A stretch of DNA of 64,000 nucleotides, taken from assembly GCA_020241125.1 (NCBI GenBank), contig GCA_020241125.1_4708.1, one strand, 5' to 3'. Both the position numbers and the translations under genes were made by a program. The notes beneath the pieces are model-generated. The model saw only the letters and a list, made by a program, of their open reading frames with translations, ran no database searches and was not told the DNA's origin. This DNA comes from a phage. Positions 4,928 through 56,873 of the stretch are shown here, in pieces; position 1 is the first letter of the stretch; every line of letters starts with the position of its first letter.

Positions 4928-5555
4928 TGATACCTTCTATTAGTTGTACAGCAACTTCTTTTTCGGTGCTATAAAAGAACTTGCGATGGAACTGAACAAG
5001 AAGTTTTTCGAATTTACATTGAACGATCTTTTTGCGTTCGATATGACCCAGGGAGAGCAAAGCACCCATGCAACGTACCGCTTGTTCGAGAACTTGTTTC
5101 GCGGTATCGTGATCGTCCGGTAACGGTAAATCTTCCTCATCGTCTTTAGCGATAAGGCGTCTGATGATGTTATCGATACGTATCTCATCACCGTTAATAA
5201 AAGCCCCCTTCTCCCAGTCATCGAATCGTTGATGGATTCGACGTTGTAAGTTGGCCCTGTCTTCCATTAACTCTTTCAACTGGCTTTCTAAATGGGATAC
5301 GGTACGGCGGTCGGTTTCAGTGAAGTTTTCCGATTCTTTGTACCACCAATCATTACGCGATAGTAAATCGTTAACGCGCGAAATCGTCCGACGACACTCA
5401 CTAACAAGCCCGTCACCATTCGGTAGCTCTGTACCAAAATAGCATTTGTATTTATAACGCATAACACGGATTAAACGTTTCGCTAGAAAACCTTGCCTTT
5501 CCAGTTTCTTCTTCAGTTGTGTGTATTTCTCTTCTTTTGTTTCCATTAATTCCAT
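4914..5555 (-). CDS. hypothetical protein (213 aa)
   Basis: ORF track. Confidence 0.55.
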   Translation of the reverse strand: MELMETKEEKYTQLKKKLERQGFLAKRLIRVMRYKYKCYFGTELPNGDGLVSECRRTISRVNDLLSRNDWWYKESENFTETDRRTVSHLESQLKELMEDRANLQRRIHQRFDDWEKGAFINGDEIRIDNIIRRLIAKDDEEDLPLPDDHDTAKQVLEQAVRCMGALLSLGHIERKKIVQCKFEKLLVQFHRKFFYSTEKEVAVQLIEGINEVK

Positions 5556-5944
5556 GATGTTGTACCTCGTTCAGCAATCAGGAGAGTCGTGGTTGTGCTT
5601 TTCACTAATCTATTAAAGTCTTGATATATCCGCCTGAGGGATGATTTCAAATCACAATAACGGCTGAAATAAACCTTCAAGTCATCTTTTGTCACAGTCT
5701 CCGTATTTATTTTCGTAGAAACACCGAGATCGATAAACTCTTTTCTTAATTGGGATAATTCATCAAGAAGTCGATGATGGCTTAGATAAATAACAGATTT
5801 ATCGGATAACAACTCGCCGGTTATCCGGCTCTGGCGTTCATCGAAATATTGGAGCCGCCATTCAATTCGCTTACGTAATTTATCAAGTAAATCAACAAAA
5901 GCGGTATAGCTGTTAACGGCTAGGTTAACTTGACTCGTTATCAT
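5546..5944 (-). CDS. hypothetical protein (132 aa)
   Basis: ORF track. Confidence 0.5.
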   Translation of the reverse strand: MITSQVNLAVNSYTAFVDLLDKLRKRIEWRLQYFDERQSRITGELLSDKSVIYLSHHRLLDELSQLRKEFIDLGVSTKINTETVTKDDLKVYFSRYCDLKSSLRRIYQDFNRLVKSTTTTLLIAERGTTSWN

Positions 5945-8445: not shown

Positions 8446-8509
8446 CTCGTAGTAAAAATAAATAGAGTTTTTGTCGAGACGCCCTAATTACTTACAACGT
8501 AGGTTATCC

Positions 8510-9394
8510 TCAATAACGACCGTAGCGTTCCTCGAGCCGTTTTGGTTTTCTCAGAAGGCTATCTTTAAGTGGTACGACGTCGATATCAACACTCTCTGAG
8601 TAATAGCCGTTAGAACTACCATACCAACGGATAACAACACAACCCTTTGCAGTACGGATATGGTAAAATGTCCATTGTATACGTTCGCTGTAATAACCGT
8701 AGTTATCGGTTCTTTCCTCGGTTCTTTCTTCAGCACTGAGTATCTTTTCACCGATGATATCATTAATATCGCCGTCAATGTCTTCAAGATACACCTCTTC
8801 GCAGCAATCCTGCTGATGACAGAATTCGACAACGTTTCCATCACCACGATAGAAAAGAAGGGCGATACCGTTTCGTAATTGCTCGCTCGTTACATCAGAC
8901 ACACAATGCAAACTTTTATCGTCGGTAATCACCAAGACGTTGTTGATTACATGTCCGGCAAGCGCTCCGATCTTATTTACCGTGATAATCGGACGAACCG
9001 GTTCAGATTGAACGATAGGAATACGGACACAACCAATTAAAGCCATCCGTCCTTTCTTTGGTCTAACCGCAAGATACGGTGATTTTCTTGGGTGGTTATG
9101 TAGTCGTATTTCTACTTCGTTGAATTTAATCCCGTATGAACACAGAAAATAATTGAATAGTTTACGGAATTCCTCGGTTGCTTCTTGCAACGTGATGTTA
9201 TTTACTGTGAGTTTATGTCCCCTGAACACCCGGGTTAGATCGATAACATCCAGCGTTTTGAAATATATTTCCGTAAGGGGATGACCTGTGTATTCCAGGC
9301 AAGTAATTGTTCTTTGAACCACGATTTTAGGTTGTGCACCTTTAAAACGTTTCAGGTATTTAACACGATAGCGTGTATGATCTGATGTTAACAT
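8510..9394 (-). CDS. hypothetical protein (~294 aa; start moved to internal ATG with GGAGAGGAG RBS)
   Basis: ORF track 8510..9493; the longer N-terminus would overlap a terminator hairpin. Confidence 0.5.
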   Translation of the reverse strand: MLTSDHTRYRVKYLKRFKGAQPKIVVQRTITCLEYTGHPLTEIYFKTLDVIDLTRVFRGHKLTVNNITLQEATEEFRKLFNYFLCSYGIKFNEVEIRLHNHPRKSPYLAVRPKKGRMALIGCVRIPIVQSEPVRPIITVNKIGALAGHVINNVLVITDDKSLHCVSDVTSEQLRNGIALLFYRGDGNVVEFCHQQDCCEEVYLEDIDGDINDIIGEKILSAEERTEERTDNYGYYSERIQWTFYHIRTAKGCVVIRWYGSSNGYYSESVDIDVVPLKDSLLRKPKRLEERYGRY

Positions 9395-9467
9395 TTTAAT
9401 CTCCTCTCCCGACTTCAGAGAATTCTTAAAATCCGTTAGTTTTGATAGATAGGGTAAGACGGCATAA

Positions 9468-11476: not shown

Positions 11477-12730
11477 TCACTTCAGAAGCTTAGACGCCGC
11501 CATGCTTCGCGCCTTCGCAACGTCATACGCATCCATGATTGCGTCACCGATAGCGGTATGACGGATCAACGGAATACCCATATCTGGATACTCTTTGGTA
11601 CCTAAGATGGATACCGGTTTGTCTTGATATGCGGCAATCATCGAACGGATATCCTGAACCTGGTTATAACGACAAACTGGCTTAAAGCCTGCTTTACGGA
11701 ACCAATGCTCTAATTGAGGCCAATCTGTTTCACCGCGAGCAAGATAATAGAAGGCATCCTTACCGTAATATTCGGTCATTTCATCACGGATATTGTTAAC
11801 AAACGCATTCACTGTGGTAATGGCTTCTTTATAGTCCATCACTCCGTCATGCTGAAAACAATAGTCGCGCGCTTCCTTCGGTGCTTTGGTTTGCCACCAT
11901 TCTACCGTGGACTTACTAATATCACCACCATCAGCGATTTGACCATAAACGTCAGGGAAGATATCTATACGTGGGCCGTTAATAACAGATTCTGGATTAG
12001 CTAGATCAAAGAACAAGATGCCGATTTCCAGCAGTACCCCGTTCTTTTCCAGACTGAGATTCTCCACATCCAGGCAAAACGCAGGTTTCTCTACCGCTGA
12101 AAAATCAAAATATCCTTCGAAACGTGGCGTTGGTTCAGCAGCGAGAAACGTCTCATGGACGAACTGAGAGAATGTCTTATTCTCTGCTACTAAGTCAATG
12201 CCCAATTTACTTAGCAGTGGTATAAGCGCACGGTCGTTCTGCTCGATTATCACCAACTCTTGGTTTTTGATATAACGACCAATTGAGTAAAAAAGATGAA
12301 CGATATCTAACGGTTTATACGGAGCCCCAAATGTTGTTCCCTGGAACGACTGAGCTAGCGCCTTATGCGTTTCTTCGCGATGATTCATCAGTTGGATAAT
12401 AGCGCAGCGCAGATAATACCGTAATGTTATCTCGTGAAGATGCGACGTATCTTCCTGAAATAACGTCATGAAACCGTGATACGTATAATACTCTCCTCTT
12501 TTAATTTCTTCGAGGAGTTCTTTGTCCCCATTTATTTCCTCTGGTGTTATCGGTTCGATTTGATCGTGGATAATGTTGAGCAGGTCACTGCCGTGTACCT
12601 TAAACAGTTTTTCAACGTCAAGATTAGGTAAAGTCGCAATCGCCGCGTACATTAATGTTTCTGCGGGATTAAGTTCTTTATTGTCAATTGTGATGGTTAA
12701 AGCCATTTTGTTATACCTCATCGAAATCAA
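11477..12730 (-). CDS. putative 3'-5' exonuclease, DnaQ-like DEDDh-type C-terminal domain (417 aa)
   Basis: CLDVENLSL (Exo I-like D-x-E) and IRHTAIGDAIMDAYDV (Exo III-like H-x-A-x-x-D...D); N-terminal ~200 aa unassigned. Confidence 0.45.
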   Translation of the reverse strand: MISMRYNKMALTITIDNKELNPAETLMYAAIATLPNLDVEKLFKVHGSDLLNIIHDQIEPITPEEINGDKELLEEIKRGEYYTYHGFMTLFQEDTSHLHEITLRYYLRCAIIQLMNHREETHKALAQSFQGTTFGAPYKPLDIVHLFYSIGRYIKNQELVIIEQNDRALIPLLSKLGIDLVAENKTFSQFVHETFLAAEPTPRFEGYFDFSAVEKPAFCLDVENLSLEKNGVLLEIGILFFDLANPESVINGPRIDIFPDVYGQIADGGDISKSTVEWWQTKAPKEARDYCFQHDGVMDYKEAITTVNAFVNNIRDEMTEYYGKDAFYYLARGETDWPQLEHWFRKAGFKPVCRYNQVQDIRSMIAAYQDKPVSILGTKEYPDMGIPLIRHTAIGDAIMDAYDVAKARSMAASKLLK

Positions 12731-21607: not shown

Positions 21608-23062
21608 ATGAAACTCAAACAAAGCTGGAAAGACGAACTTCTCGCGTTAGTAAACAGCAAAAACAGTTTACAACTGACATTAGACGATGTAAAATTTGAA
21701 CTAACGGCACCGGTAAGCGAAGTGCCTGGAACGGTCGTTGTTACAATCAAACCGAACGATAATAGTCGCTACTTTAACGAGCAGTCTCTGACCTACATCC
21801 GTCGAGACATCGCTAAAAACTTCACCGGGATCCCGTTACGGGTTATCGTTAAGCAAGATACCGCTGTAAGGGATATCATCAATACGATTGCTGAACGTTA
21901 CGGATTGGTATTTGACACAGCCGTCGACTTCCTCGAATCCGAGCTGAATAAACAAATTACGTTCGCAGACACCGGTATTAAAGACATTACGGTTCCGGTT
22001 GCAAACACGTCTTATGTTTGGGCGGGTAATCTTCAGTTCAATATTGCTAACGATACGTTAAGCTTGATTACTATCATCAAGAAAACCGATCTTACGAATC
22101 TGGTTTATCTGGATGGTGTTGAAGCTGACACATCTGGTTCGTTACTATTAGCAACCGCAGCACTTGTTAACGAACACGTAAATGAACCGATGGTTGAAAA
22201 CGAAGATATCGTTAATGAATTTATTAACGTTCTTAATACTCTAGCCAAATATGGTGACATAACCGGCGATGAATTAGATGCCGCCTTACAAGCGTACGAT
22301 GAAGCAGAAAACAGGAATAAAACCACGGTAATAACTCTTGGTGATATCCAGTGTGTTGCAACAGAAAAAGACGATTGGGAAATTGGACGTTTACGCGGTC
22401 AGATGGTTCTCGCGCTCAAATCCGATAAATACCCGGAGCCCGATAACACGTTCAGGTTGTTTACGAATGGTGGTGACGTATCGCTAACGTTAAACACAAT
22501 GAAAGATATAAGTATCGATTGGGGTGATGGGAATAAAGTAACGTTGGATGCTGAAGAAAGATACGCGCACCACACATACGCCGACAATAACCAGTACCAA
22601 ATCGAAATTGTGTCTCGTACGGACCCAGATGTGCTGCGACCAAATTATATTTCTGGGAGTGAGATAACCGAAGTAATTCACTGGGCTACTACTTCAACAA
22701 TAGCTCTGAATTTTGTTGGATGCGATAATTTAGCGACTGTTCCAGATGAGATCCCAACTTCGTGGACAACGTTGGACAGCATGTTTGAAAGTTGTACGAA
22801 TTTGAATGATCCGTCTATCTCTAACTGGAATACAAGTAACATCACATCAATGAATGGTATGTTCGGCGGATGCACTAAATTTAACCAACCTTTAGCTGCC
22901 TGGGATGTCAGCTCAGTAACTGACATTGGTGGTATGTTTAACGGATGCAACAGTTTTAACCAAGATTTAAGTGGGTGGCGATTACCGTCAGGAGTAACCC
23001 ACGACAATTACGATAGTGGTGCTTTCTCGTGGCAGACGGAACATAAACCGACGTTCCAGTAA
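21608..23062 (+). CDS. protein with C-terminal DUF285/BspA-type leucine-rich repeats (484 aa)
   Basis: C-terminal repeats NFVGCDNLATVPDEIPTSWTTLDSMFESCTNLNDPSISNWNTSNITSMNGMFGGCTKFNQPLAAWDVSSVTDIGGMFNGCNSFNQDLSGW match the FxxCxxF-NQDIS-xWDVSxVTxMxxMF pattern. Confidence 0.7.
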   Translation: MKLKQSWKDELLALVNSKNSLQLTLDDVKFELTAPVSEVPGTVVVTIKPNDNSRYFNEQSLTYIRRDIAKNFTGIPLRVIVKQDTAVRDIINTIAERYGLVFDTAVDFLESELNKQITFADTGIKDITVPVANTSYVWAGNLQFNIANDTLSLITIIKKTDLTNLVYLDGVEADTSGSLLLATAALVNEHVNEPMVENEDIVNEFINVLNTLAKYGDITGDELDAALQAYDEAENRNKTTVITLGDIQCVATEKDDWEIGRLRGQMVLALKSDKYPEPDNTFRLFTNGGDVSLTLNTMKDISIDWGDGNKVTLDAEERYAHHTYADNNQYQIEIVSRTDPDVLRPNYISGSEITEVIHWATTSTIALNFVGCDNLATVPDEIPTSWTTLDSMFESCTNLNDPSISNWNTSNITSMNGMFGGCTKFNQPLAAWDVSSVTDIGGMFNGCNSFNQDLSGWRLPSGVTHDNYDSGAFSWQTEHKPTFQ

Positions 23063-44346: not shown

Positions 44347-44696
44347 CACATATCTTCAGTATGAATCGCTACTTCATACCCGCAGCATTACCTGCAGCTC
44401 CTGGTGTTACCAGGACGGAGAGATCATCTCATCACCCACGAAGGGTGTTCCGCGCTACCCTCAGCGAATTCGAGGGACATGATCGTTGAACCTTCCACCG
44501 ATAATCGGTGGCTAGGCTGCTGATTAAACATTGTACGTTGGGGTGGCATCCTGGTTCAGGACTGTCGTTGAAGCCTCCCAACATCCACTCACTTATTTCC
44601 GCCTTATCGGCTCCCATAAGGGCAGAGTGGCTTTAGCCCGTCTCAGCAATTCACGGAATTCAAGCTCTTCCTTTCAGAAGGCAGGGCCTCATCTGA
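44347..44696 (-). other. putative self-splicing intron (group I-like, 350 nt, no ORF) interrupting the beta' gene
   Basis: Exon 1 frame ends ...KGYNA and exon 2 starts DFDGD, restoring the YNADFDGD motif; 5' exon ends in U and insert ends in G; insert carries GGUUCAACGAUCAUGUC and AAGAUAU near its 3' end (resembling group I R and S elements) and several stem-loops (CCUGGUAACACCAGG). Confidence 0.55.
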
Positions 44697-45947
44697 AGCA
44701 TTGTATCCCTTAAGGATCATCACGCTTAACCCGATGGTATTATCCTGCGGATCGCGTTTAACCTTGGTGATTTCAAGACATTGGTTACTGCTTCGGTCAA
44801 GTGATGGGTTTCGAACAAAACCGCACACAATCCCATCGAACGGTGTATCAGCAATAAGCTCATCGTGCAGCTCACTCATCATCGGATGATAATTACGGAC
44901 ATGTTCCGCAACGAACGCACGTGCTGCTCTCGGTGAATAACCACGATGGAATAACTTGGATTGGATATGTTCTTTATTGGTTAAAGTAAATGGTGCGTAT
45001 GGGAAATGCAGATGATAATAACGATGGTTCGCTGTTATCGAACTGATTACAGTACGCGTGGTGAATGGATGTAATGTACCTAATATGTTTTTACGTGTGA
45101 TACCTTTCTTCTTACCGATGAACTCATCGAAAATCGCCGCATGGTATTGCAGTAGCTTCAATTGCACTTTCGCCATCCAGTTTTCTTTCTTTCTGGCGCT
45201 CAAAGGTGTTGTTGGGTGATAGATACTATTCAACGTACCGATAGCATCGATCGCACCTTCCATTTTGCTATCCGCATAACGACCGGTTGGCGTATTCTCG
45301 ATAACGAACATCATGGCCGCAGGAAAGCTGATATACTGACTGAAGAACTTATCACGATGGATACGGATGAATTCTCGTAGCGTATCAACTTTCTCCGTGT
45401 TCTTCGGTCCGCGTAACGTCGGTCCTTTATACAAGATCTCCATGATGCGATCGAAGTTCTGTATAAAACTATTTACACCGCGACGTATCCCGAATACATC
45501 GAATTGCTGCTCCAGATAGTTCTTGAGTTCGATGGGTCGTTTTACATTTGGACGGTAACTGGCATCAATGAGCCACGTCATCGTTTCAAAGCTTTTGATA
45601 TTCAACTCGCTTGCCAGCACGAGATGGACCAACGGGTTAATGAACGCATCAATTCCTTCAGGAACACGCGCCCAAACCGTCGAACGAATCTCTTGTTCTG
45701 CTGGATAGGTTACAACCGTTTTACAGTTCGGACACACCGTGCCGAGCAGCTCACCACGATTGTAGAAACCACAACCACATTGTGGCGTGATATCCAACGT
45801 ATCGCTGGAGTAAACACGGGTGATAAAACTGTTTAATTTCTTCTTCTCTTCGACGACTTTTGTATCGTAATCATTCAACAAAATCGGCGTGAAAGGAAGT
45901 TCTGCGAGCTGTCTATCGAAACTCACGATATCGAGCATGATGGCCAT
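44697..45947 (-). CDS. RNA polymerase beta'-like N-terminal subunit, exon 1 (417 aa to the GYNA junction)
   Basis: N-terminal zinc finger CGCGFYNRGELLGTVCPNCKTVV (cf beta' CxC...CxxC); TAGGAG RBS; unspliced frame continues 17 codons to a stop. Confidence 0.65.
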
Positions 45948-46039: not shown

Positions 46040-47935
46040 TTAGAACAGGTTGAATGCCCCACCCATGTTGTTAACGCCAACATTCGGACGATCGCTACGT
46101 GCGTAGATGTTACCGGAGATGTTACCCAGACCACGAGCACGTGCTGCCATGTTACCACGAACAGCGGTACCTGCCAGATGCTGGATGTTCTCAGGACGGA
46201 TGGTGAAGCCAGCATCAGCAGCGGCCTCGATCAGCGCCTGCAGTGCTAACGGATCGAAGTCGTAACGCATTGCCCAGCCGGTTTGTTCCCAGCTACCAGA
46301 CAGAACACGATCAATGATTTCGTGACGAGCGACAACACGCTGAGACATCGTCATATCGGTACGGTCGAAGCTGTCTTCCCAAGCTTCTACGGTATCCGGG
46401 TTAGTGATGTTCATCATGTACAGATCGTCCATATCACGAATATCGTGACGGTGACCATCCTGGTGGTTATAATGACCCAGCGGGATACGGTTACCGGTAG
46501 CGTAGACCAGTGGTGCGCCGTACTGATATTTCTTGCTGAAGCAACCCAGGGTAGTATCATCGAAGGCACGGAAGAGTGCTTTGTAACCTTCGGAGATTTC
46601 CCGGACTTCACCTTCAACTTTGCCCGTATAGATCTTCTCAGCCGCCGGGATCATACGCAGCAGCCAGCTGTATTCGCCTTCTTCCGGTACGTCGATAGAA
46701 ATCAGCAGAGACGGATACAGTACCTGTTGCAGGAACTTGTAAATCTGCTCGTTGGTTTGAGTAGACAGATCCAGCGGTGCGGTAACTTCCGGATCCAGTA
46801 CCATCGCCAGAGCACCCGGGTTATGCGGACCAATACCACGAGCAGCGTTGCTGATTAAAGACTGTGCCCACGCCATACCGCTGTTCAGCGTAGCGATGGT
46901 GCCAATCAGACCCAACACGAAAGTGTTCGGCGTGAACGCATCCAGCTCCAGCGGGTAAGCGCTGGTCATCACGTAACGCGGTTGGTATTGTACAGTCGGC
47001 GGTACCGGATAACCGTTAACCAGAACAGGGCCTTGGTTGAAGGTCGGGTTCTGCGGGCTGTAGGTCAGGTCAATGTAACCGGTGGTTGCGACCAGACGCT
47101 GCTGACTATCGTAATCGCTCATCGCTTGACGGATGCGGTTAGAGATAGTTACAGTGATGTCAGAACGCACAGGGTTACCAACAATATCGCTGTCCTGCAT
47201 ACCGCTGGTGTTGTACTGAACGCTGCTGATTGGCTGATCGCTTGCCATCATGCCCAGGTTGAACTGCGGCAGACCCAGTTTATCGCCGAGACGGATTTCG
47301 ATCGCGGTTTGGATTGCGTTATCTGCAGCAGACAGCAGGGTGGTTGCCAGATGCGCAGATTCAGCGGTGATTTCATTGGTCACCACAGCCAGACCAGCGA
47401 TACGAGCAGTACCATTAGACTTACCACCGATAGCTGCATACATTGCCGCCATGACTTCGTTGATGAACGTACCGTTCAGGTTATCAACCCAGGTACGCGG
47501 CACCAGAATGTTACCATGCGGGCCTTGTTCTTCACGACGCGGCAGCGGAGCCAAACCGGCAACCAGTGGAAGCACATAACCGAAGAAGTGGTTATGGTCA
47601 CCAACTTTTGCACCGCTCATAACAACCAGGGTCGGATACGGTACACTGTATTGGTTAGGATCGACGGTCACCATGATGAAGTCGTCTTTGAATCCTTTAT
47701 CTTCCAGTTCTTTTTCCATCAGACGACGGAGATTCAGTACCTGCTCGGAGCCAGTATTACGGCTAATACGACGGCTCAGTGTACGGTTGATCGTACGCAT
47801 CGTATGAGTTACTTTAGGCTGGCCAGCAAAATCTGCAGCGGTTTCCAGCGCCTCATCAGCACGTTGTGCGGTGCGGGTTTCAGCTGCACGAATTTCTACA
47901 TTATCGTTACCGTTATTACGTACGTCTAAGCCCAT
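46040..47935 (-). CDS. chmA: candidate chimallin / phage-nucleus shell protein (631 aa); major capsid protein not excluded
   Basis: Large ORF with strongly optimal codon usage, AAGAGGAA RBS, promoter-like motif 70 nt upstream, directly upstream of the beta'-N gene (order as recalled for phiKZ gp54-gp55), ~8 kb from PhuZ. No motif confirmation possible by eye. Confidence 0.45.
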   Translation of the reverse strand: MGLDVRNNGNDNVEIRAAETRTAQRADEALETAADFAGQPKVTHTMRTINRTLSRRISRNTGSEQVLNLRRLMEKELEDKGFKDDFIMVTVDPNQYSVPYPTLVVMSGAKVGDHNHFFGYVLPLVAGLAPLPRREEQGPHGNILVPRTWVDNLNGTFINEVMAAMYAAIGGKSNGTARIAGLAVVTNEITAESAHLATTLLSAADNAIQTAIEIRLGDKLGLPQFNLGMMASDQPISSVQYNTSGMQDSDIVGNPVRSDITVTISNRIRQAMSDYDSQQRLVATTGYIDLTYSPQNPTFNQGPVLVNGYPVPPTVQYQPRYVMTSAYPLELDAFTPNTFVLGLIGTIATLNSGMAWAQSLISNAARGIGPHNPGALAMVLDPEVTAPLDLSTQTNEQIYKFLQQVLYPSLLISIDVPEEGEYSWLLRMIPAAEKIYTGKVEGEVREISEGYKALFRAFDDTTLGCFSKKYQYGAPLVYATGNRIPLGHYNHQDGHRHDIRDMDDLYMMNITNPDTVEAWEDSFDRTDMTMSQRVVARHEIIDRVLSGSWEQTGWAMRYDFDPLALQALIEAAADAGFTIRPENIQHLAGTAVRGNMAARARGLGNISGNIYARSDRPNVGVNNMGGAFNLF

Positions 47936-49350: not shown

Positions 49351-51504
49351 TTACTCTGCGGTTTCTTGCTTCGGTAAATAACTTGCTGCGATGTCTTGGG
49401 CTAACAATGTATTGTTTTTATTCGAGATGAAAATACCATAACTTTCCATTAACGCGTAATACGAACGCACGAGCGTAGAGATCAATCGACGAATATCCAT
49501 ACCTTGAATAAAGATATCAGGAAGCCCGGAGGCTTCGATCACCGGTAATGGTATCGTTAAGTTGCTTATCGTTTTCTTATCGTTACGTACAATCCAATCA
49601 CGGAAACGTTGTTGTAACCCTTTATCCTCCCAGGAATCAATCCAATCGTTAAGAAGCGTTTTGTTCTTCGTCGCCAACGGCACACGAACCCCAACATAGG
49701 GTGGTTCCTGGCAATGGCCGTACGATTGAGCAAACACCTCTTCCCACATATCGTAAGACTGTTTCGTTACTGCAACATGCGGTTTCACTTTAACACGTGT
49801 TAAGAAATCAGGATCACCACGTTTCATGGACTCAACGATTTCGTTTTCTAACGAGATAATATCGTCAAGAACCAATCGAATGCTGATCTTCTCGTTACGT
49901 AACAGCTTATCCATGATACCACACATCATGCGTTCAACACGTTTGACGATCATTTTTGGTGCTGACGCATCGCGCATAACCGGACCTTTCAATTCCAGCT
50001 TCGGTGGATTGATAGGAACCCCTTCACGCATGGTCATGTAACCGTAATAGTTTTTACCCATCGAGGTTAACGACAGAATCAAGAACATATATTCGTTCTT
50101 CATTTCCATCACGTACATATGCTCTTTCGCCACACCGATATTACCAGAACACATCGCCATCAGATGAACCGTAATCTGCGTAACCAGATAGATAAGCGTG
50201 TTTGCTAAGCGCGTCGAAACTGGATTGATCTCCATATTTCCAAATCGCCACTGAACCCACTCCTGGCAGGTAAACACCGTCGAGTCGGTATCAGACAACA
50301 CACCCACTTCACGGATTGCTGATGGGAAAGCATAAACACCAGCCGGTTGGTTCTCGGTACGCCAGAACGCCATAATCAAATCAGCATAGCTTTGAATACG
50401 CTGTAGCATTAATTTTGTCGTTGCTGCAGTAAGACGATAACCAAGCTCATTTCCTTTTTCTAGCGCTACGTAAATCGCTTCCCCATTCAAGAACTCCGTA
50501 CATTGTGCTGTAATCCAAGCGACCGTGTTGTTATCCATGGAAGCAATAATGGCTTTAGCCTCTTCCATCGTTTCAACAGGTTCGGATGCCAGCTCGCATA
50601 ACGAATCAAGAAAATCTCGAACAAATTCAGGATTAAGCTCACGTAACGAGTACAGGTTATTGCTATACATGTAGCAGGCGCGTTCCAGTGGGGTTAAACC
50701 GGTAATTAACTCCCGGATAGTCAGTTCTTTCTCTGGGTCGAAAGTATATCGATGCAAGCATTTCGATACGTTAGCCCAAACCTCTTCCGGCGTAGGGTAA
50801 TGTAGTTTGTATTTTACCATTACCTGTTCAATGGCTTTACGATCGCTGTTGCGGACAATACTCACGATGTTTTCAATTGCGATATCACAATCGTAATAAT
50901 GGAAATTGCCCGCAAGGAAGCGTTCGTTGTTCGCATTGGCTGAACCTGAAGCACAGCGACACGTTGTCGTTAAACTTGGATGCGCAATTGGATTATAAAA
51001 AGGGTTAAACTTGGACGCCTGGGTTCCTGACAAACTGTTGTTATCTAACTTGGTGTTGGTTTGTCGTTTATCGTGTAACTCAGCTTCATCTTTACGTCCG
51101 TGTGCTTGCGCTATCGACATTTGTTTCTTTTGTTTCTTACGCAACTTACCGTTTTCAACCGCAAAGTCGCTTAGCACACTGGAACGTGTTTCACGTGGAT
51201 AACAGTTAGCCCACACCGGCGTGATAATTAAATTATTTTCTTTAATATCATTGAAGTATTGGCTGAACTTGATGACTTCTTTTTCTCGATTTCCTTCGGT
51301 GCGCTGTGTTAATACAAGGCAGTCGGGATCAACCATCCCGTATTTTCCACCAGGACGAACCGTATCAAGGACAAACTGCAACGCTTCCTGCTGTGATATC
51401 CCACGCATGCGCATTAAGAACAGGGTATAATCCTGTACCGCTTCTTTGGTCATATCCAACGTACGGCCATATCCGTTTTCATCGTAAAAGAACGGATTTT
51501 CCAT
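49351..51504 (-). CDS. hypothetical protein (717 aa); candidate divergent family-B-like DNA polymerase catalytic module
   Basis: VGVLSDTDSTVF resembles polymerase motif C (YGDTDS); downstream GKNYYGYM resembles the KxY motif; motifs A and B not convincingly found. Confidence 0.55.
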   Translation of the reverse strand: MENPFFYDENGYGRTLDMTKEAVQDYTLFLMRMRGISQQEALQFVLDTVRPGGKYGMVDPDCLVLTQRTEGNREKEVIKFSQYFNDIKENNLIITPVWANCYPRETRSSVLSDFAVENGKLRKKQKKQMSIAQAHGRKDEAELHDKRQTNTKLDNNSLSGTQASKFNPFYNPIAHPSLTTTCRCASGSANANNERFLAGNFHYYDCDIAIENIVSIVRNSDRKAIEQVMVKYKLHYPTPEEVWANVSKCLHRYTFDPEKELTIRELITGLTPLERACYMYSNNLYSLRELNPEFVRDFLDSLCELASEPVETMEEAKAIIASMDNNTVAWITAQCTEFLNGEAIYVALEKGNELGYRLTAATTKLMLQRIQSYADLIMAFWRTENQPAGVYAFPSAIREVGVLSDTDSTVFTCQEWVQWRFGNMEINPVSTRLANTLIYLVTQITVHLMAMCSGNIGVAKEHMYVMEMKNEYMFLILSLTSMGKNYYGYMTMREGVPINPPKLELKGPVMRDASAPKMIVKRVERMMCGIMDKLLRNEKISIRLVLDDIISLENEIVESMKRGDPDFLTRVKVKPHVAVTKQSYDMWEEVFAQSYGHCQEPPYVGVRVPLATKNKTLLNDWIDSWEDKGLQQRFRDWIVRNDKKTISNLTIPLPVIEASGLPDIFIQGMDIRRLISTLVRSYYALMESYGIFISNKNNTLLAQDIAASYLPKQETAE

Positions 51505-51579: not shown

Positions 51580-51607
51580 AACCGATCCAGCCGAAGCCAG
51601 ATCGGTT
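51580..51607 (-). terminator. hairpin AACCGATC...GATCGGTT flanked by A/T runs (bidirectional), CUUUUUUAUGCCG tail in minus sense
   Basis: In the 300-bp intergenic region after stop of 51804..52217. Confidence 0.55.
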
Positions 51608-55892: not shown

Positions 55893-56873
55893 TTAGAAAA
55901 GCAAGAAACCGCTATTCTTCGCTTCCGCTACAGTTTCGTCACCAACTTTCGGCGCTTGTTGACGTGCGTTACGATGTTCGATGTAACGTTTCGCTTCGTC
56001 CGCGATCTGTTTGATAATACCCCCTAAACGATCGGTACTTAAAACAAACGACGTCGCTTCACGAATTGGGCTGCTTTCAGGCACAAAACCATCGCAGCTG
56101 TAAATAGCGCTAACGCCCATGACTTTTGTCGCGTCTTTCGGATAAAGCGTACAGAAAGCAATCGGGCTATCGTTCTCTTTCGTCCAATCGTATCCCATGA
56201 ACGTATTCAGTTCGGTGATCGTTGGTTCCAAACCGGTAACACGTGGATGGTTTAAGAAGTTTTCCAGGTCGGCGCTGTCAAGACGACGGTTCTCGCCAGA
56301 AAACAGAACACAAAGCTGGCTAATAACAACCTGCACGTCCAGGTTGACATCCTGCTCCGATTTCCCATTTTCGCCATTCATGTGATAGCTAACAATCACT
56401 GGACGTTTCAACCCTTCTGCAGCCGCCATCAGTCCTTTGAAGGTGCGATCGGCGTTGATCGTTTGACGCTCGTCATCGAACGAGGCAACGATGCAACACA
56501 CCACACGTTCACCACGTTCCAGCAGGTTAGCAACCAACGCAGGACCTGCAACAGAACCTGAACCACCGCTCAGACTAAAGACCACGATATTAAATTTACC
56601 TGGCGTATGCTTATTCAGAATACCCGGGATTTGTGAACAGATCAGTTCAGCGTTCTCATCACGCTTCTTACCAGAACCGTCTAACTCACGACCGGCTACA
56701 TCTTTAAAGATGTAAATATGATCGTCACCCAGTGTGCTATCGCGTAGGTTAGCGCGGCTGGTATCGACATACGTCATGCTGTGTAATCCTTTCGCGACTT
56801 CGCCTTCAAATGCTGAGCCGATTTCGCCACCACAACCACCGACAGCCCAAATATGTACTTGGTTCTCTTGCAT
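55893..56873 (-). CDS. phuZ: phage tubulin PhuZ-like (tubulin/FtsZ-fold GTPase, 326 aa)
   Basis: N-terminal VHIWAVGGCGGEIGSAF (cf tubulin IHIQAGQCGNQIG) and VVFSLSGGSGSVAGP (tubulin signature GGGTGSG); size matches PhuZ. Confidence 0.8.
   Translation of the reverse strand: MQENQVHIWAVGGCGGEIGSAFEGEVAKGLHSMTYVDTSRANLRDSTLGDDHIYIFKDVAGRELDGSGKKRDENAELICSQIPGILNKHTPGKFNIVVFSLSGGSGSVAGPALVANLLERGERVVCCIVASFDDERQTINADRTFKGLMAAAEGLKRPVIVSYHMNGENGKSEQDVNLDVQVVISQLCVLFSGENRRLDSADLENFLNHPRVTGLEPTITELNTFMGYDWTKENDSPIAFCTLYPKDATKVMGVSAIYSCDGFVPESSPIREATSFVLSTDRLGGIIKQIADEAKRYIEHRNARQQAPKVGDETVAEAKNSGFLLF

Follow-up and report, generated by a model that had tools for sequence, protein, structure and literature searches.

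The 'group 1' (PhiKZ-like) jumbo phages have as their hallmark polymerase a clade in which Iyer et al. [quoted passage not shown] The same authors described an SH3 gene upstream of the polymerase as a conserved neighbourhood. In the abstract of the later account by Basu et al. (bioRxiv Oct 2026, PMC13648687), the core polymerase of PhiKZ is a stable 1:1 complex of two chains, DNAP^N and DNAP^C, whose 2.1 Å cryo-EM structure is homologous to B-family polymerases. A third subunit, Rhc, combines an N-terminal RNase H with a C-terminal clamp-related domain; it boosts primer extension and acts with the thumb to bind the duplex as it exits. Among the top hits of an antisense screen in PhiKZ are the SH3 protein gp049, two proteins labelled 'DNA polymerase', gp050 and gp082, and gp155 with its RNase HI domain; plaque formation suffers when PhiKZ049 is knocked down, and knock-down of PhiKZ050 impairs the phage. 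This enzyme is of interest for its two-chain active site, for the clamp-derived monomer that replaces a ring clamp, and for its work inside the phage nucleus. Here we analyze a homologous locus in a 64,000-nt stretch of phage DNA (the window).

A 717-residue protein of the PF20286 family

In the ORF listing of the window, the minus strand at 49351..51504 carries an ORF with an ATG start that encodes 717 residues and a stop. A first-pass annotation made from the sequence alone had described this ORF, with its DTDS and GKNYYGYM strings, and had called it, speculatively, a divergent family-B DNA polymerase. All of these elements are present as described: DTDS lies within VGVLSDTDSTVF (residues 399-410, with the D405 codon beginning at nt 50292), and GKNYYGYM covers residues 483-490. 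The polymerase call also holds, given an end-to-end match to the polymerase family PF20286, profile matches to family-B polymerases and invariant motifs. Translated in all six frames, the window contains a single DTDS; because shuffled windows give 0.7 ± 1.0 occurrences, the tetrapeptide alone is within chance, and its weight comes from the conservation of S404-S408 and from the profile matches, not from the string itself.

The match to Pfam PF20286, 'Divergent Family B DNA polymerase' (divDNApol), has E=2.4e-204 and 681 bits, where the cut-off is 25.7; residues 9-705 align to positions 3-704 of the 705-position profile. The protein also matches PHROG 2927, 'DNA polymerase' (2.5e-206). By tblastn, 306 phage records have one copy each, and most of these records are of PhiKZ-like jumbo phages. 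Searching 5.8 billion proteins, we obtained 112 homologues, all 112 of which contain PF20286. For the analysis of conservation we aligned 41 homologues with 24-64% identity to the query protein, and here too PF20286 is matched by every one (41/41).

The same amino-acid sequence is found in gp244 of Escherichia phage vB_EcoM_Goslar (HOV27_gp244, NC_048170; 'DNA polymerase' in RefSeq). The two genes are 97.6% identical at the nucleotide level; of the 51 differences, 50 fall at codon position 3 and all 51 are synonymous, a pattern indicating that the gene is under strong purifying selection. About 63 kb of the Goslar genome (125,464-188,467) runs collinear with the window, interrupted by a few indels, at 93.5-97.8% identity. 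Judged by this collinearity, the phage of the window is a close relative of Goslar, a jumbo phage of E. coli. Besides, the protein is a full-length orthologue of PhiKZ gp050, with 33% identity to PhiKZ050 over its full length (E=1e-138). Three sequence and synteny features mark the DNAP^C family of PF20286, namely a full-length match, synteny with PhiKZ gp050 and a helical insert with no fused exonuclease, and all three were found here.

The surrounding genes follow the same order as PhiKZ 049-055 (Table 1). Directly upstream of the polymerase gene is SH3DP, an orthologue of PhiKZ gp049 that matches the 'SH3 fold domain associated with phage DNA polymerases' (PF20287). In the Goslar record, a putative terminator is annotated where the hairpin at 51580..51607 would fall. 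The window also encodes split RNA-polymerase subunits, which, with chimallin and the gene at the PhuZ position, count among the hallmark genes of chimalliviruses. Scanned against Rfam at gathering thresholds, the window gave no match. A scan for sigma-70 promoters around the gene found 6 sites, compared with 6.6 expected in shuffled sequence; this result says little, because such phages use their own RNA polymerases.

Table 1. Coordinates of the polymerase gene, its domains and motifs, and neighbouring features in the window.
Feature	Position	Strand	Description
Chimallin	46040-47935		PF25677
Opposite-strand neighbour	48190-49284		Matches PhiKZ052
DNAP^C gene	49351..51504	-	717 aa + stop; orthologue of Goslar gp244 and PhiKZ gp050
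Thumb, aa ~517-717 (boundary approximate)	49354..49956	-	Alignment runs on from KxY into start of RB69 thumb
KxY, K484-N-Y486	50047..50055	-	= RB69 K706-R-Y708; K484 and Y486 invariant
Motif C, S404-D405-T406-D407-S408	50281..50295	-	Turn of palm beta-hairpin, strands 401-405 and 408-411
All-helical insert of ~200 residues, aa ~200-395	50320..50907	-	Between post-motif-B palm helix and motif C strand
Motif B, K152xxxN156-S-x-S159-G160	nt 51025-51051	-	= RB69 K560...N564 S565 x Y567 G568
R122/K126	nt 51127-51141	-	= RB69 R482/K486; invariant
Palm strand 'SPSMTxY' and two-helix fingers, aa 76-163	51016..51279	-	Alignments to RB69, AlphaFold2 model
N-terminal extension, aa 1-75	51280..51504	-	Two helices and a beta-hairpin, pLDDT 81-96 (AlphaFold2)
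Terminator-like hairpin	51580..51607	-	12-bp stem with 6 GC pairs, then T-run; between SH3DP and polymerase genes
SH3DP gene, 137 aa	51804..52217	-	PF20287, E=1.3e-36; 42% identity to PhiKZ049, E=7e-19
PhuZ position	55893-56873		Weak sub-threshold Tubulin-domain match; PhuZ annotated there in Goslar

The family connects to classical family-B polymerases

Searched as a single sequence against PDB sequences, the 717-residue protein had no match at E<=10, and so family-B polymerases were reached only through the 41-sequence profile. This profile, one of the checks named in the first-pass annotation, matches 82 distinct PDB sequences, and all 60 of the matches listed are family-B polymerases. They include RB69 gp43 at 1e-6 and the poxvirus E9/F8 enzymes (vaccinia/mpox) at 6e-5, the latter over a stretch from the fingers through motif B to the next palm helix, as well as Pol zeta, delta and alpha. 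Matches to Pfam PF00136 (DNA_pol_B) were obtained with 20 of the 41 family members individually, with a best value of 1.4e-12; in the six matches examined, which cover the fingers/motif B region, all six were above the curated cut-off.

Another of these checks, a comparison of predicted structure, gave the same answer. An AlphaFold2 model of the protein has a mean pLDDT of 90 and a pTM of 0.86, and in a Foldseek search with this model the best 50 PDB matches are all RB69/T4 gp43, at low TM-scores of 0.2-0.26. The best superpositions are with RB69 gp43 and Pol alpha/delta, and the palm/fingers/thumb fold that defines family B was found.

Residue map of DNAP^C

We mapped the protein onto RB69 gp43 by combining HMMER and hhalign alignments, the AlphaFold2 model and conservation in the 41 homologues. 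The first 75 residues have no counterpart in gp43, as the alignments begin at residues 76-78, corresponding to gp43 435-437. Residues 76-145 align with gp43 435-505 and residues 146-163 with gp43 554-571, and in the model the two fingers helices span residues 110-134 and 138-161. Further on, the KxY/thumb segment is aligned by hhalign (residues 484-532 with gp43 706-754) and by HMMER (residues 480-533 with RB69 705-758). The region assigned to the thumb is helical with short strands in the model, with a pLDDT of about 85-94.

The invariant columns in the alignment of 41 sequences are R122, K126, K152, N156, G160, T179, E194, G199, Y253, R398, S404, D405, T406, D407, S408, K469, E471, K484, Y486, E494, K506, G507, G596 and P662. 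Motif B reads K152-L-D-N-N156-S157-L-S159-G160, a KxxxNSxYG variant in which Tyr is replaced by Ser; K152, N156 and G160 never vary, and the Ser at position 159 is kept in at least 90% of the family. By analogy with established PolB biochemistry, R122, K126 and K152/N156 are predicted to bind the incoming dNTP, and K484 and Y486 of KxY to contact the primer terminus.

The first-pass annotation had equated DTDS with motif C and likened GKNYYGYM to KxY. Both assignments gain support: S404-D405-T406-D407-S408 is unchanged in 41/41 homologues and sits at a hairpin turn in the model, and K484 and Y486 are invariant and aligned with RB69 K706 and Y708. Neither hhalign nor HMMER aligned motif C with RB69 residue by residue. 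Motif C stays unaligned to a solved PolB because the HMM alignments are broken by the insert of ~200 residues, in which helices span residues 206-380 between motifs B and C (model, pLDDT 90). This insert is the multi-helical one that Iyer et al. had described for the clade. The proposed equivalence to the PolB motif thus rests on invariance, on the hairpin in the model and on collinearity between motif B and KxY. By the same biochemical analogy, D405 and D407 would be the metal ligands.

Motifs A and B had both been reported as not clearly recognisable. This is right for motif A, which is not in the chain, and wrong for motif B, where K152xxxNSxSG160 is clear. Since no acidic residue is conserved within residues 1-150 of the 41 homologues, the aspartate of motif A is not in the DNAP^C chain. 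The 'SPSMTxY' segment bears a superficial likeness to motif A, but we ruled it out; it aligns with RB69 'SPNGMMY' (~454-460), a later palm strand. As the earlier reading had also stated, the 717-residue chain has no exonuclease domain, nor did we find exonuclease motifs in it.

A second subunit carries motif A and the exonuclease

The first-pass annotation had found the missing elements consistent with the split or cryptic replicases reported for phiKZ-like phages and had suggested a search for a separate exonuclease or N-terminal PolB fragment. By tblastn, no DNAP^N or other partner gene was found in the window (E>=1.4). Searching the annotation of the whole Goslar genome, we found such a fragment in gp068, the second protein annotated as 'DNA polymerase' (79,690-81,189), about 93 kb from gp244 and outside the window. 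As the Goslar genome is 96-98% identical, the window's phage presumably encodes the partner genes, DNAP^N included, as well.

We retrieved 120 homologues of DNAP^N, and looked for motif A in the Goslar reference and in metagenomic homologues; residues are given in DNAP^N numbering. All three exonuclease motifs are conserved: D155 and E157 of Exo I (DxE) in 120/120, N254 of Exo II (NxxxFD) in 120/120 and its D258 in 119/120, and Y389 and D393 of Exo III (YxxxD) in 120/120. The chain also carries a motif A of the DxxSLYPS type, D499-L-D501-[VI]-x-x-x-Y506-P507, followed by N514-I-S-K-E-T-T. The match to Pfam PF03104 is weak (E=0.008). The program hhalign places DNAP^N residues 123-519 collinear with gp43 84-429 (Prob 96.4%, E=1.2e-9), such that D501 corresponds to RB69 D411, Y506 to the steric-gate Y416 and N514 to N424. 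The split considered earlier is thus borne out, with motif A and the exonuclease on the second subunit. The defining features of family B were found across two chains: motifs B and C, the fingers Arg/Lys and KxY on the 717-residue protein, and motif A and the exonuclease on DNAP^N.

By these alignments, the chain break maps to gp43 ~430-434, just past 'NISPET'. About 64 residues at the tail of DNAP^N and about 75 at the head of DNAP^C flank the break with no match in RB69, and both extensions (in DNAP^C, residues 1-75) probably form the inter-subunit interface.

Two other candidates were rejected. Goslar gp039, annotated as 'polymerase', has no Pfam match and no exonuclease or PolB motifs, and is not DNAP^N. 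The 417-residue DnaQ-like exonuclease encoded in the window at 11477-12730 (PF16473/PHROG 255) has no motif A and is unlike DNAP^N, and is not the missing domain.

The annotated Goslar DNAP^N gene is truncated at motif A

In the Goslar annotation, gp068 ends at '...IRLFVAD' followed by the stop. Taken at face value, this end, together with the 'MENPF' start of DNAP^C and its conserved F5, would place the split inside motif A. This reading is refuted by P0113, a 99%-identical, intron-free homologue of 583 residues that reads through the complete motif A. In Goslar, the remaining 84 codons (exon 2) lie 1.76 kb downstream of the end of gp068. Between the exons are an HNH/NUMOD1 ORF (gp069) and the core of a group I intron, which matches Rfam RF00028 over the full model length at 44.7 bits (gathering score 50; E=1.5e-9). 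On this comparison, an intron splits the Goslar DNAP^N gene between the codons for D499 and L500, and the RefSeq CDS is truncated. Among public gene calls for DNAP^N, 27/120 stop at positions 499-503; motif A appears to be a recurrent site of interruption, with the intron verified in Goslar only.

A proposed composite active site assembled from two chains

Chimalliviruses, the nucleus-forming jumbo phages, replicate with a two-chain family-B polymerase, and the 717-residue ORF almost certainly encodes its C-terminal subunit, DNAP^C. Identity, fold, motif conservation, synteny and orthology are established directly here, as is the placement of motif A and the exonuclease on the partner chain. 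The 1:1 complex, the polymerase activity and the role of Rhc are taken from the PhiKZ literature, as described in the abstract of Basu et al. Since PhiKZ050 carries motifs B and C, KxY and the thumb, we infer that it is the DNAP^C of PhiKZ.

In the mechanism that we propose, DNAP^C would supply most of the palm, including the hairpin with motif C (D405/D407), as well as the fingers, the KxY contact and the thumb. DNAP^N would supply the N-terminal domain, the 3'-5' proofreading exonuclease and motif A, with D501 and the steric-gate Y506. The active site would then be a composite one, assembled at the subunit interface, and catalysis would need both chains; DNAP^C would be unable to work alone, because the motif A aspartate, the steric-gate Tyr and the exonuclease are on DNAP^N. 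The subunit-specific extensions at the break (~64 residues in DNAP^N and ~75 in DNAP^C) may hold the chains together. By analogy with PhiKZ, Rhc would join the thumb, hold the product duplex and raise activity. A candidate for Rhc is Goslar gp190, a protein of 508 residues with Pfam RNase_H at 87-194 and ~310 further residues that have no Pfam match; its gene lies outside the window.

It is conceivable, but doubtful, that SH3DP is indispensable to the replicase, as one of its physical components or as an assembly factor, perhaps docking on the helical insert or on the 75-residue extension; if it were, the insert would be a protein-recruitment platform and not a clamp substitute. SH3DP goes unmentioned in the abstract on the PhiKZ replicase by Basu et al. 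(PMC13648687).

Could the enzyme also prime DNA synthesis? Iyer et al. (PMC7824862) raised this possibility for the group 1 jumbo phages, which have neither DnaG-type nor archaeo-eukaryotic primases, and it would explain the missing recognisable primase, which is described as still unidentified in the abstract of Basu et al. (PMC13648687). However, neither the sequence nor the model gives any hint of a primase module, and the assays described in that abstract are of primer extension only. The RNase H is moreover placed there to remove RNA (PMC13648687), which fits primers made by another enzyme, for example a phage RNA polymerase. We regard a combined primase-polymerase as quite improbable.

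Still less probable, in our judgment, is a self-sufficient single-chain PolB with no exonuclease of its own, with proofreading left to a free-standing DnaQ-type enzyme such as the protein at 11477-12730. A stand-alone exonuclease elsewhere in the genome was indeed proposed by Iyer et al. (PMC7824862) before 2026, and the window does encode the PF16473/PHROG 255 exonuclease. But upstream of the fingers there is no motif A aspartate or conserved acidic residue; motif A instead sits with a PolB-type exonuclease on DNAP^N, collinear with RB69 gp43, and the PF16473 protein has no similarity to DNAP^N. The stable 1:1 DNAP^N-DNAP^C complex of PhiKZ, as given in the abstract of Basu et al. (PMC13648687), also argues for the two-chain enzyme.

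Finally, a PolB derivative without catalytic activity, structural or regulatory in role, like the inactivated PolB modules of some cellular polymerases, could be imagined from the lack of motif A in the chain, the change of the motif B Tyr to Ser and the large insert, but we give it next to no credence, given that the remaining catalytic residues are all invariant in 41 diverse homologues, that all 51 differences from Goslar are synonymous, that the Goslar annotation offers no other candidate replicative DNA polymerase (gp039 has no polymerase signature), that knock-down of PhiKZ050 impairs the phage, and that the PhiKZ complex extends primers in vitro according to the abstract (PMC13648687).

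Comparison with known replicases

The nature of this protein is already known from Pfam PF20286, from the RefSeq annotation of Goslar, from the clade defined by Iyer et al. (2021) and from the 2026 cryo-EM structure of the PhiKZ enzyme. Our analysis adds a residue map of the PolB motifs by subunit, locates the chain break on RB69 gp43 and corrects the annotation of Goslar DNAP^N, in which the gene is truncated. These additions are useful for annotation and are not a discovery.

The described system most like this one is PhiKZ, which shares with the window the upstream SH3DP gene and the ChmA/RNAP neighbourhood. PhiKZ and Goslar alike have a second annotated DNA polymerase and a protein with an RNase HI domain. 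The two lineages differ in host, Pseudomonas for PhiKZ and E. coli for the Goslar lineage, and their DNAP^C proteins are 33% identical; in the Goslar reference, moreover, motif A of DNAP^N is interrupted by a group I intron that contains an HNH/NUMOD1 ORF.

Iyer et al. (PMC7824862) found the nearest relatives of the clade, by profile-profile comparison, to be the E9/F8 polymerases of poxviruses and other NCLDV PolBs. In our searches, by sequence profile as well as by structure, RB69/T4 gp43 scored above the poxviral enzymes. Unlike the enzyme described here, poxviral polymerases are single chains with a fused exonuclease; they too use a non-clamp processivity factor.

Whereas RB69/T4 gp43 is a single-chain replicative polymerase, the window's enzyme would be built from two polypeptides with a break near gp43 ~430, and gp43 has no counterpart of the ~64- and ~75-residue segments that flank this break. 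The fingers are shorter than those of RB69, with 30 residues from R122 to K152 compared with 78; the motif B Tyr, Y567 in RB69, is Ser; and, unlike gp43, the window protein has a helical insert of ~200 residues ahead of motif C. Going by the abstract on the PhiKZ enzyme, the chimallivirus replicase also differs from that of RB69/T4 in having no ring-shaped sliding clamp or clamp loader, the place of the ring clamp being taken by a clamp-derived single subunit, Rhc.

Conservation of the polymerase gene and interruption of its partner in Goslar

The window and the close relative Goslar (NC_048170) differ at 51 nucleotides in the gene for the C-terminal polymerase subunit, DNAP^C (49351-51504), and every one of the 51 differences is synonymous: 50 fall on the third base of a codon and the remaining one on the first. 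A wholly synonymous set of differences at 2.4% divergence is an unusually clean mark of purifying selection on the polymerase gene.

The partner subunit, DNAP^N, carries the exonuclease and motif A and is encoded in Goslar by gp068, which is annotated at 499 aa. The break in gp068 falls between the D499 and L500 codons, within polymerase motif A, and ~1.76 kb separates the two parts of the gene; the second exon, 84 codons long, is left without annotation. This interruption holds an HNH/NUMOD1 ORF (gp069) and the core of a group I intron, which matches RF00028 at E=1.5e-9 with a score slightly below the gathering score. Among public gene calls of the DNAP^N family, 27 of 120 end at this same motif A position.

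Two further proteins were considered. The stand-alone DnaQ-type exonuclease of the window, which also has an uncharacterised N-terminal region of ~218 residues, was rejected as the polymerase's proofreading domain. Goslar gp039 matches nothing in Pfam and lacks both PolB and exonuclease motifs.

Features in the window and in Goslar (L003 and L005, stretches of NC_048170 outside the window)
Feature	Location	Strand	Evidence or label
DUF7448 protein, 327 aa	8510-9493	minus	DUF7448 domain, E=1.4e-23
DnaQ-type exonuclease, stand-alone, 417 aa	11477-12730	minus	PF16473 Rv2179c-like, E=5.8e-15; PHROG 255
SbcD-like nuclease subunit, 380 aa	39091-40233	minus	PHROG 100, E=2.5e-38
RNAP subunit ORF, 434 aa, contiguous	44643-45947	minus	Goslar intron site at 44689-44698
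PhiKZ052 homologue, 364 aa	48190-49284	plus	E=3e-15
Goslar gp039, 598 aa	L003:39828-41624		RefSeq label 'polymerase'
Goslar DNAP^N gene region (gp068 onward)	L005:29691-33201 (NC_048170 79,690-83,200)

An intron-less RNA-polymerase subunit gene and other differences from Goslar

In Goslar, the RNA-polymerase subunit gene contains the HNH endonuclease gp186 and an annotated group I intron (168,194-169,661). These 1,467 bp are missing from the window, which therefore carries an intron-less, contiguous allele; scanning the window against Rfam at gathering thresholds likewise turned up no intron.

Collinearity is also broken at ~5544-5941, at ~22155-23030, within a DUF285/DUF7941 (BspA-like) gene, and at 8509-9405, where ~0.9 kb that the Goslar reference lacks encodes most of the DUF7448 protein.

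Neighbouring genes

The SbcD-like nuclease subunit is labelled 'hypothetical' in Goslar, which encodes an SbcC-like protein elsewhere (gp012). From the polymerase to chimallin, the only plus-strand gene is the homologue of PhiKZ052, annotated in PhiKZ as a structural head protein, and its inverted orientation matches that in PhiKZ.
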